This document shows positions 40,779-43,190 of a stretch of 64,000 bases of DNA, piece by piece. The notes beneath the pieces are model-generated. The model was not told the DNA's origin and did no database searches. It worked only from the letters and a program-made list of their open reading frames with translations. The position numbers and the translations under genes are program-made. Every line of letters begins with the position of its first letter. Within the stretch, counting starts at the first letter, position 1. Source of the stretch: Promethearchaeota archaeon (GTDB lineage: Archaea > Asgardarchaeota > Lokiarchaeia > Sigyniarchaeales > SOKP01); contig JAHPZJ010000028.1 in the NCBI GenBank assembly GCA_019058245.1, forward strand, positions 64,001-128,000, written 5' to 3'.

Positions 40779-43190
40779 TTAGGTTCTACAAAGTCTTTTT
40801 AAAAGAGTTGGATCTATTATCTCTTTTGGTTTCCATCCCTTCTCTTTTAGATATGCCATTATCTCATCTTTCATATTAATAGGAATATCCGCTTCCAGAC
40901 GGACAAATTTCTCTAAATCATTAGGAAATTCAACACCCTTATATTTTCTCTCTAAATCGATCCAATGAGATAATTTTATCATTCGTCCTTTAGAATTATC
41001 TGCAGGTCTTAAAGCTAATTTGGCGACTAAACAGATAGCTTGTTCTATACTTTCCGCGGTTGTTAATAGATGTTCAGGTCCAGGTCCCACTAGATGATCG
41101 GCTGTTCCATCTCGAGCATTGAATACTTTCCAAACATCTTCATCATCGGAGCGTCCAATATACATTCTTCTATATTCCGCGGCATGAGGGCCACAAACAG
41201 CTGGTACACCTAAACCATTTGCCATACTTGCAATACTTGCAGCTTTTTGAGACATAGCACCCCATGCAACACCAACTGCTCCAACTCTGTTTAAAACATA
41301 GTCAGCTATTTCTTCAAAATTACCACGTAATGGTCTTCGGGCGAAGATATTAGCAACTTTAATTGCAGCTCCAGTAATATGAGGATTACTTACGCAACTT
41401 CCTACATTTACTAAACCGCCTCTATCAAAATCACCCGGAAATCTATCATATAATGTTTTTCCATCTTCATCCTTTACAAGGCCAATATCCATTGCTCCAC
41501 AGCCTGAAACTACAACTATATAATTTCTTGTTAGAAATTCTTCAGCCATTTTATATAGTTCTTGAATTTCATGAGCATAACTCGCACATCCAATTATTGC
41601 AACAATTCCAGGGATTTCTCCTAAGACAATAGGGGCACCTACATTCCTAATTTCGGTGTCCATAATAGGTCCACGCCCTACTCTACAGTTGAATTTCTCA
41701 TTTCTAATCTGTTCTCTAGCGGCATATTGTAATAAAGTTAAAGGAGATACACCTTTCATACAGTCTCCTTCACATCGTCCACATCCCAAACACTCATCGA
41801 ATGCTCCTGCTAATACTGAGAAATCCCCATCTTTAGCTAATTTTACTCCTTCCACAAGTGGTAAATCATTTGGACAATTTCTTTGACAATTTCCACAGCC
41901 ATTACAATTCATCGCCATATCAATGCAACCTTGTTCATCAGGAACTCCACTTTTTGCTTTTCTAATTGGTTTGACTTTTATTGCAGTTTCAGCTGCTACT
42001 GCACCAGCTTTTATTGGATCTAAAATAAGGACACCGGGTTCCTTTCCACTTACTAAATCATCAACAATTTCATTGATAGGATCAGTGGTTCTATCAGGTA
42101 AACCGCTCATATTCTTTTCATTTGTAGCAATAAATGGAGCTCCAATCAACTGGGCTTGCTCAAATGATCTTAGATTTACACATTGTTCATCAACCATTAC
42201 TACATCTGGAAATCCCGATCGAATCACATGAAGCTGTCTTGACATTGATCCCACAATCTTAGCACCATCATAGTATCTCGTTAAATCATGGGCAGTACAA
42301 CAAATTGCTCCAACATCTACCTTTTCATCTATACCTTTTTCTCTTATATAATCAACTAATTCGACTCCAGGGGCAACGTTATGTCCAATCATCAAAATAA
42401 CTGCCTTACTCGTATCTAATGTTCCCATACCAAGTTCTACAATAGGAACATTAGGATCTCCCATAGGAAATCCGTACGCGGCAATTTGAACAGCATCAGA
42501 AATTTCCATACCTACAGAATCTGCTAATCCTGCTAAAAAGCTTTTTGATTCATAATCTAAATAAGAACTCTCTTGTCCTGTATGTCCCGCCGCTAATAAG
42601 TGTGTTATTGTAAAATGCACCCACTCCATAGCGGTTTCTAAATCTTCTAGGGTTTCAGGTTTCATACCGACAACTAATCTTGTGTGAGGCATCTCAACGG
42701 CTATATTATTCCCAAAATTAATTGGTACATTGCCATACTTTTCTTTTAACCAATGTAATAGATGATCTCCGTGGGCAGAATGGCACGCAGCGCCTATACA
42801 GCAGGCAATCTCTACTATCCGACTCTGTTGTGTCTCCATATTGATCCCGCATGCACCTGTTCGCCCCTTGGAAAGATTACATTTCCCATATGTGCATAAA
42901 CAGCACATATCACATTTGTCGTATATGCACAGATCAATTGTGCATATATATCGGCATGTAAAAAGGTTTGTATCTTTCCATCATTTTGAAAAACCAATTG
43001 CGTAGGGTTGGAATATGGGGCATAGGATTTTACCCTTGAGAAGTCATGCTTCAATCAAGTGAGGTCCCATAGGCTCCCATTCCGTCTCATCTCCGAAAGA
43101 AACTTTACCAGTAGTAAGTTCGAATCCTTTAATCGTTCCGAGAGGACCTTTATATTCATCTATTTTAACTTTAGCTCCTCTTTTTTCCAT
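40779..43190 (-). CDS. cdhA: CO dehydrogenase/acetyl-CoA synthase alpha subunit, predicted 3 exons (43190-43061, 43028-42950, 42915-40779), 781 aa spliced
   Basis: Spliced N-terminus MEKRG...WEPMGPHPMPHIPTLRNW...[32 protein letters not shown], DEQC, two CxxCxxCxxxC, GSCVSN, WGAMSQKA. Protein identity is secure; exon structure is inferred. Confidence 0.93.
42916..42949 (-). other. Putative 34-nt BHB-type mRNA intron 2 in cdhA
   Basis: 10-bp hairpin UAUAUGCACA/UGUGCAUAUA, bulges AU|A and AA|A around GCCG:CGAC; removal restores the frame (MP-I-CDMCC). Confidence 0.8.
43029..43060 (-). other. Putative 32-nt BHB-type mRNA intron 1 in cdhA
   Basis: Hairpin CUUGA(UU)GAAG/CUUCUCAAG, bulges UC|A and AA|A around GACC:GGUA; removal restores the frame (MGP-H-PMP). 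Confidence 0.78.

Follow-up and report, generated by a model that had tools for sequence, protein, structure and literature searches.

We analyzed a 64,000-nucleotide (nt) stretch of DNA, here called the window (positions 64,001 to 128,000 of contig JAHPZJ010000028.1, assembly GCA_019058245.1; our contig C28), from a 3.09-Mb, 76%-complete Promethearchaeota genome (G000) whose relatives are Promethearchaeota (Lokiarchaeia) metagenome-assembled genomes (MAGs). On the minus strand of the window, an open reading frame (ORF) at positions 42908 to 40779 encodes CdhA, the alpha subunit of CO dehydrogenase/acetyl-CoA synthase (CODH/ACS). It scores above the TIGR00314 cutoff, and an intron-free cdhA orthologue matches PDB entries 8RIU and 3CF4. 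The gene itself starts upstream, at an ATG at 43190, and deletion of two segments, intron 1 (43060 to 43029, 32 nt) and intron 2 (42949 to 42916, 34 nt), yields a stop-free CdhA of 781 amino acids (aa) that is colinear with the intron-free gene of a relative (L001; 92% DNA identity). The minus-strand exons thus delimited span 43190 to 43061 (exon 1, 130 nt from the ATG), 43028 to 42950 (exon 2, 79 nt), and 42915 to 40779 (exon 3, which contains the ORF of 709 aa that gene callers annotate from ATG 42908). Intron 1 interrupts the His codon of a GPHP motif. Intron 2, at position 209 of the spliced coding sequence (CDS), lies within the Ile codon that precedes the type I D-cluster motif CxxCC; the split Ile codon had been described in an initial annotation of this DNA. 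We found a single cdhA in the genome; cdhB and cdhC are intact on a separate contig (G000 C30:149197-151200).

Read along the minus strand, intron 2 and its borders form a compact series of pairing elements. The exon strand of a 4-bp central helix, GCCG (42955 to 42952), is followed by a 3-nt 5' bulge, AU|A (42951 to 42949), that spans the exon-intron boundary. Next comes the intron hairpin (42948 to 42922), with a 10-bp stem (42948 to 42939 paired with 42931 to 42922) and a 7-nt loop (42938 to 42932) that holds a UGA stop (42936 to 42934). The intron strand of the central helix, CGAC (42921 to 42918), makes three of four pairs with GCCG, leaving a C.A mismatch, and AA (42917 to 42916) ends the intron. 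Stem, loop stop, mismatch, and lack of a target-site duplication had all been described in the initial annotation, with coordinates that proved exact. The boundary of intron 2 is ambiguous by only 2 nt, and therefore there is no target-site duplication. As had also been noted, introns 1 and 2 have a common architecture (the central helix of intron 1 likewise has three of four pairs) and unrelated sequences; no 13-mer of intron 2 recurs elsewhere in the genome. When the insert was shuffled 20,000 times, a fraction of 5e-5 of the shuffles combined a central helix with 3/4 pairs or better and an in-register stem of 10 bp or more, and the overall fold energy by itself is not unusual (z = -1.6). 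Independently assembled contigs from three sequencing runs (X2, possibly the source sample, X6, and X7) cross the insert with 0 differences, and intron 2 is thus not an assembly error.

The pairing of the flanking exons (UACAU with AUGUG) that had been proposed does yield a 5-bp helix; however, it needs the third base of the 3' bulge, so the motif is relaxed rather than a strict bulge-helix-bulge (BHB). We rejected the strict form (hBHBh') on three features: in the register with a 3-nt bulge, the outer helix has 0 bp, as it does in all site-209 introns; a 1x3 loop, closed by the 5-bp outer helix, takes the place of the second bulge; and the central helix is imperfect. Such a junction corresponds to the relaxed bulge-helix-loop (BHL)/HBh' motif types described in PMC6379350. 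The relaxed fold lies within 0.4 to 1.3 kcal/mol of the minimum-energy fold, with pair probabilities of 0.2 to 0.4 for the central helix. Several features are those of a substrate of the tRNA-splicing endonuclease EndA: a 4-bp exon-intron central helix whose strands stop 2 nt short of each predicted cut, a 3-nt bulge followed by the intron helix, and predicted cuts past the second base that give the orthologous protein. A group I or group II self-splicing intron was rejected because 34 nt compares with a ribozyme core of hundreds of bases, and a search of Rfam gave no match for the intron.

We compared more than 100 related cdhA copies. The 5' end is intact in 77 of the orthologues, and 70 of these carry no insert. 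A 34-nt intron occurs at the identical base in at least 12 other Promethearchaeota (Lokiarchaeia) sequences, namely in three genomes (G002, G016, and G091), in eight metagenome contigs, and, as a variant, in L234, and its length is 34 nt in every carrier. Across 11 distinct orthologous introns, stem pairs 1 to 9 are maintained in 96 of 99 cells, with two compensatory changes that pass through G-U pairs (pair 3: U-A, U-G, C-G; pair 6: G-C, G-U, A-U). The central helix has 4/4 pairs in four of these introns and 3/4 in seven, the intron strand opposite GCCG being CGAC, CGGU (the four orthologues with 4/4 pairs), or CGGA (one). The Pro codon that supplies the GCCG strand is CCG in 12/12 carriers versus 9/88 noncarriers. 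Two details emphasized in the initial annotation hold here and not throughout the family: the tenth stem pair is present in only 4/11 introns, and the loop stop is missing in L234/P0143, where the frameshift closes the frame a few codons further on. The loop stop is incidental. The changes via G-U pairs, the missing target-site duplication, and the lack of copies elsewhere count against a transposon footprint, to which the initial annotation had preferred selection on RNA structure.

Two further observations were made at this site. In G022 (L100:1710-2000), a decayed 33-nt homologue of intron 2 lies beside a damaged exon, with an N gap and foreign, GC-rich DNA also adjacent, and is either a pseudogene or a misassembly. 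Many short database proteins (P0139, P0140, and P0203 to P0246) stop just past YMPI, ICD, or MCCL, with divergent tails, which suggests further carriers, and further cdhA intron sites, beyond our sample.

Inserts of the same geometry and different sequence occur elsewhere in cdhA. Different inserts of 29 to 33 nt were found at CDS sites 130, 208, 216, 228, and 343, each with a central helix of 3/4 or 4/4 pairs that ends two bases before the boundaries and in a register that restores the protein, and with a hairpin that begins at or beside the second intron base. At the site of intron 1, different inserts are present in L040, L222, and L225. The cdhA of L222 has three introns (sites 130, 209, and 343), and its relative L232 has the one at site 343 alone. 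Within a tight clade (L049, L211, L214, L226, L052, and L090), introns are present at 208 and 228, at 209, or not at all; intron turnover in that clade is fast. Introns appear to cluster within the first 350 nt of cdhA, partly as a matter of sampling, since the downstream ORF served to rank the best-80 list and the search patterns were aimed at sites 208 to 209.

Introns at different sites have no sequence in common, and we therefore used a homology census in place of the covariance model that had been suggested. Free of any motif, the census aligned 1.2 Mb of the genome to its closest relative, G024; it detects only differences between the two and is incomplete. All six frame-breaking coding inserts (6/6) were 29 to 34 nt long with intron geometry on the sense strand, compared with 0/5 in-frame indels. 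Three of the six are in this genome (two in cdhA and one in ahcY) and three are in G024. Intron 1 had been classed as noncoding solely owing to the frame break that intron 2 causes behind it, and was counted as coding given the spliced gene model. The 32-nt insert that breaks ahcY (G000 C10:~121096, minus strand) has a 4/4 central helix, and G024 lacks it. The G024 inserts, 29 to 31 nt long and absent from this genome, are at L173:3033 (plus strand), L178:10790 (minus), and C7:426890 (minus), in genes that, named by motifs only, are methylmalonyl-CoA-mutase-like, metallo-hydrolase-like, and 4Fe-4S. In addition, a 31-nt insert with a 4/4 central helix interrupts the Walker B motif of an ATP-binding cassette (ABC) ATPase (G000 C3:~41590, minus strand), and its removal gives DEPTTGVD. 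Ab initio genome scans for BHB motifs linking two ORFs gave no more hits than shifted controls would and failed to recover known positives, and they count neither for nor against splicing.

All three exons of cdhA evolve under strong constraint. Compared with L001, the ratio of nonsynonymous to synonymous substitution rates (dN/dS) is 0.023, 0.036, and 0.023 for exons 1, 2, and 3, and the genome's own cdhA branch has 67 to 73 synonymous versus 4 to 9 nonsynonymous changes. In related carriers, the exons 5' of the intron have corresponding ratios (pN/pS) of 0.01 to 0.09, with 14 to 36 synonymous versus 1 to 10 nonsynonymous changes. Upstream exons reach the enzyme only if the insert leaves the message, which argues against both a pseudogene and an internal restart. 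The initial annotation had asked whether cdhA would prove a solitary case under relaxed selection; we found inserts of this kind in ahcY and the ABC ATPase gene, and selection on cdhA is not relaxed. Database proteins were rejected as evidence of a spliced product: P0127, P0065, P0229, and P0230 are near-identical to it, but the contigs that encode them belong to intron-free relatives and show many synonymous differences.

Two EndA paralogues and an intact RNA ligase, RtcB (contig C25, at 55 kb), are encoded in the genome. The catalytic (alpha) EndA subunit, the presumed cutting enzyme, is in the window itself (61950 to 62543, plus strand). Its triad, Y138/H146/K177, aligns with Y125/H133/K164 of Aeropyrum pernix EndA, and K55/R57 of its Crenarchaea-specific loop (CSL, or L1) align with K44/R46; the second subunit is at G000 C20:60077-60325. 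The gene content is therefore that of a two-subunit EndA of broad specificity, with the specific loop, and a ligase. The loop gives EndA the ability to cleave BHL substrates (PMC3241643), relaxed motifs are substrates of EndA enzymes with such a loop (PMC6379350, PMC3241643), and the CSL has been reported throughout Asgard archaea (PMC5829648).

We consider it highly probable that intron 2, and likewise intron 1, is an intron of the cdhA mRNA that is spliced by EndA and RtcB. In the mechanism that we propose, local folding of the transcript would set the 4-bp exon-intron helix between the 3-nt bulge and a 1x3 loop closed by the exon-exon helix. A heterotetrameric EndA would then cleave each bulge or loop past its second base (after positions 42950 and 42916), and the exons would be ligated by RtcB. 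Joining would restore the Ile codon and the reading frame that runs into the D- and B-cluster cysteines, and, with intron 1 also out, the spliced RNA would be translated into a 781-aa CODH alpha subunit. The initial proposal of a tRNA-type intron, with intact enzyme dependent on splicing, thus gains support, at the level of sequence, from the orthologous and independent introns, the selection, the census, and the enzyme set.

Several points weigh against this interpretation. The minimum-energy fold has the central helix unpaired, and the motif is not strict, with its C.A mismatch and no outer helix in the 3-nt-bulge register. The carriers are related and partly saturated, so that the counts overstate their independence. 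If the 5' segment was recently recombined into this cdhA, part of the selection on its own branch is older than the intron. With the genome 76% complete, a second cdhA may have been missed.

Were the RNA not spliced, translation might restart at ATG 42908 and give a 709-aa CdhA that is 72 residues shorter and has lost the first D-cluster cysteine; the insert would then be tolerated damage. The ATG is present with a long ORF behind it, gene callers annotate carriers as 74 plus 709 or 710 aa, and D-cluster cysteines are missing from CdhA groups A-2 to A-6 (PMC6344411). However, the product would miss the first cysteine of the type I motif CxxCC (PMC6344411), and restart would account for the selection on exon 3 only, whereas the upstream exons of carriers are equally constrained. 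It also leaves unexplained the same cut geometry at six sites and in other genes, as well as the inserts at sites 228 and 343, which are 3' of ATG 42908, and we regard it as very improbable. Even fainter is the prospect that cdhA is a pseudogene inactivated by a small palindromic DNA element, such as a remnant of a miniature inverted-repeat transposable element (MITE) or a hairpin insertion. The insert is indeed frame-breaking and hairpin-shaped, and G022 has a decayed copy next to a damaged exon; yet the 781 codons hold no further lesion, and dN/dS is about 0.03. A MITE or insertion sequence footprint was rejected: there are no terminal inverted repeats (the inverted repeat begins 1 nt from the 5' end and stops 6 nt from the 3' end), no target-site duplication, and no copies elsewhere, and changes that pass through G-U pairs indicate RNA. 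In 400 Asgard genomes the single-copy sequence was found only at this cdhA site, except for a 3-mismatch match in G178 with a broken stem.

Ribosomes could instead bypass or frameshift across the hairpin, with no splicing, as in T4 gene 60, where take-off and landing codons match and a stop directly follows take-off. A stop codon within a stem-loop and a 34-nt gap recall that system, but here the corresponding codons are unmatched (ATA versus AAA), the stop lies four codons beyond the junction and is not conserved, and the gene would need several hops; nor does bypassing predict exon-intron pairing at a fixed offset. We give it hardly any credence. Just as improbable is a phase-variation switch by which some cells of the population would excise the insert precisely at the DNA level. 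Presence and absence do vary among close relatives, but among the contigs listed from four DNA runs none has the exons of this genome exactly joined (contigs drop rare variants), there are no repeats for a recombinase, and the stem covaries through G-U pairs.

The cdhA gene (40779 to 43190) is unaccompanied by other cdh genes; its neighbors are small-GTPase, V4R-like, and MtrH-like genes. Full-length cdhD and cdhE were not found in the 76%-complete genome. ARAGORN reported only 19 tRNA genes in the genome, many with introns and wrong anticodon calls, a result in line with heavily interrupted tRNAs.

Intron 2 also appears to have moved. Carriers are scattered across the cdhA tree, and the 11 carriers require nine changes on the downstream-gene tree (seven forced by strong branches; shuffled mean, 10.6). 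Carrier introns are 87% alike, compared with only about 50% for third codon positions. The 209 nt that precede intron 2 differ more from the sister gene L001 than the rest does (third positions, 40/68 versus 567/711; p = 2e-4) and are closer to other carriers (L223, 49/68, versus L001, 34/68), and this cdhA and L001 are identical over the 65 nt directly 3' of intron 2. This pattern suggests that the intron-bearing 5' segment was imported via recombination. Comparable mosaic 5' ends are found in intron-free pairs too (L051 with L055 and L058), and we saw no long co-conversion tract near the intron, third-position identity among carriers equaling background in the flanks tested; directed homing is therefore not demonstrated. 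Alternatively, the intron may be ancient, strongly conserved, and lost many times. Viral contigs had no match to the intron sequence. On balance, we lean slightly toward the intron being a tolerated passenger that travels between species when short gene segments recombine and that is frequently lost, not an old regulatory device. We also raise, tentatively and without favoring it, a broader reading: Lokiarchaeia may harbor turning-over, site-specific mRNA micro-introns that spread sideways from species to species without a protein of their own, by homing-like or ordinary recombination of short gene segments, and that place core enzymes such as CODH under the control of the tRNA-splicing machinery. 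On this reading, the prokaryotes closest to eukaryotes would have multi-intron protein genes that need no spliceosome.

In the literature searched, with most subscription journals outside its coverage, an intron has been demonstrated in just one archaeal coding sequence, cbf5 (PMC7714728, PMC2738675); PMC2738675 also mentions predictions for other genes that are unconfirmed. The testable features of the cdhA intron place it with the pre-mRNA intron of crenarchaeotal cbf5 (Watanabe 2002; Yoshinari 2006; Yokobori 2009, PMC2738675). Both are short, interrupt a conserved coding motif, and have a relaxed BHB-like boundary, with a cut (predicted here) past the second bulge base, a host with hetero-oligomeric EndA, and patchy gain and loss. 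Unlike cbf5, cdhA is a gene of central carbon metabolism in an Asgard host, with two introns in this copy and six occupied sites across relatives rather than one; several other genes are hit in the same genome, there are signs of lateral spread, and splicing is inferred from sequence. The noncanonical tRNA introns (HBh', hBH, and BHL; PMC6379350) are of the same size class and geometry, with the same presumed enzymes and repeated gains, and relaxed-motif introns are abundant in some Asgard tRNA genes (bioRxiv 10.64898/2026.10.13.758758). The cdhA intron differs in being in an mRNA, with no tRNA body, and that preprint does not treat mRNA. The BHB site in the 5' untranslated region of Haloferax HVO_1309 (PMC7714728) likewise makes an mRNA an EndA substrate, as predicted here, but it involves no dependence on reading frame and a homodimeric EndA.

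The length of 34 nt and the predicted cut sites make the claim cheap to test. Public annotations cut the cdhA of carriers into a 74-aa "hypothetical" protein and a truncated CdhA, which distorts metabolic reconstructions of Asgard MAGs. If our interpretation is true, multi-intron mRNAs of the Wood-Ljungdahl pathway would make protein-spliced mRNA routine in an Asgard lineage, and carbon metabolism would be tied to EndA capacity. In eukaryotes, the XBP1/HAC1 mRNA is spliced by an endonuclease and RtcB, and splicing of cdhA would be a prokaryotic parallel.
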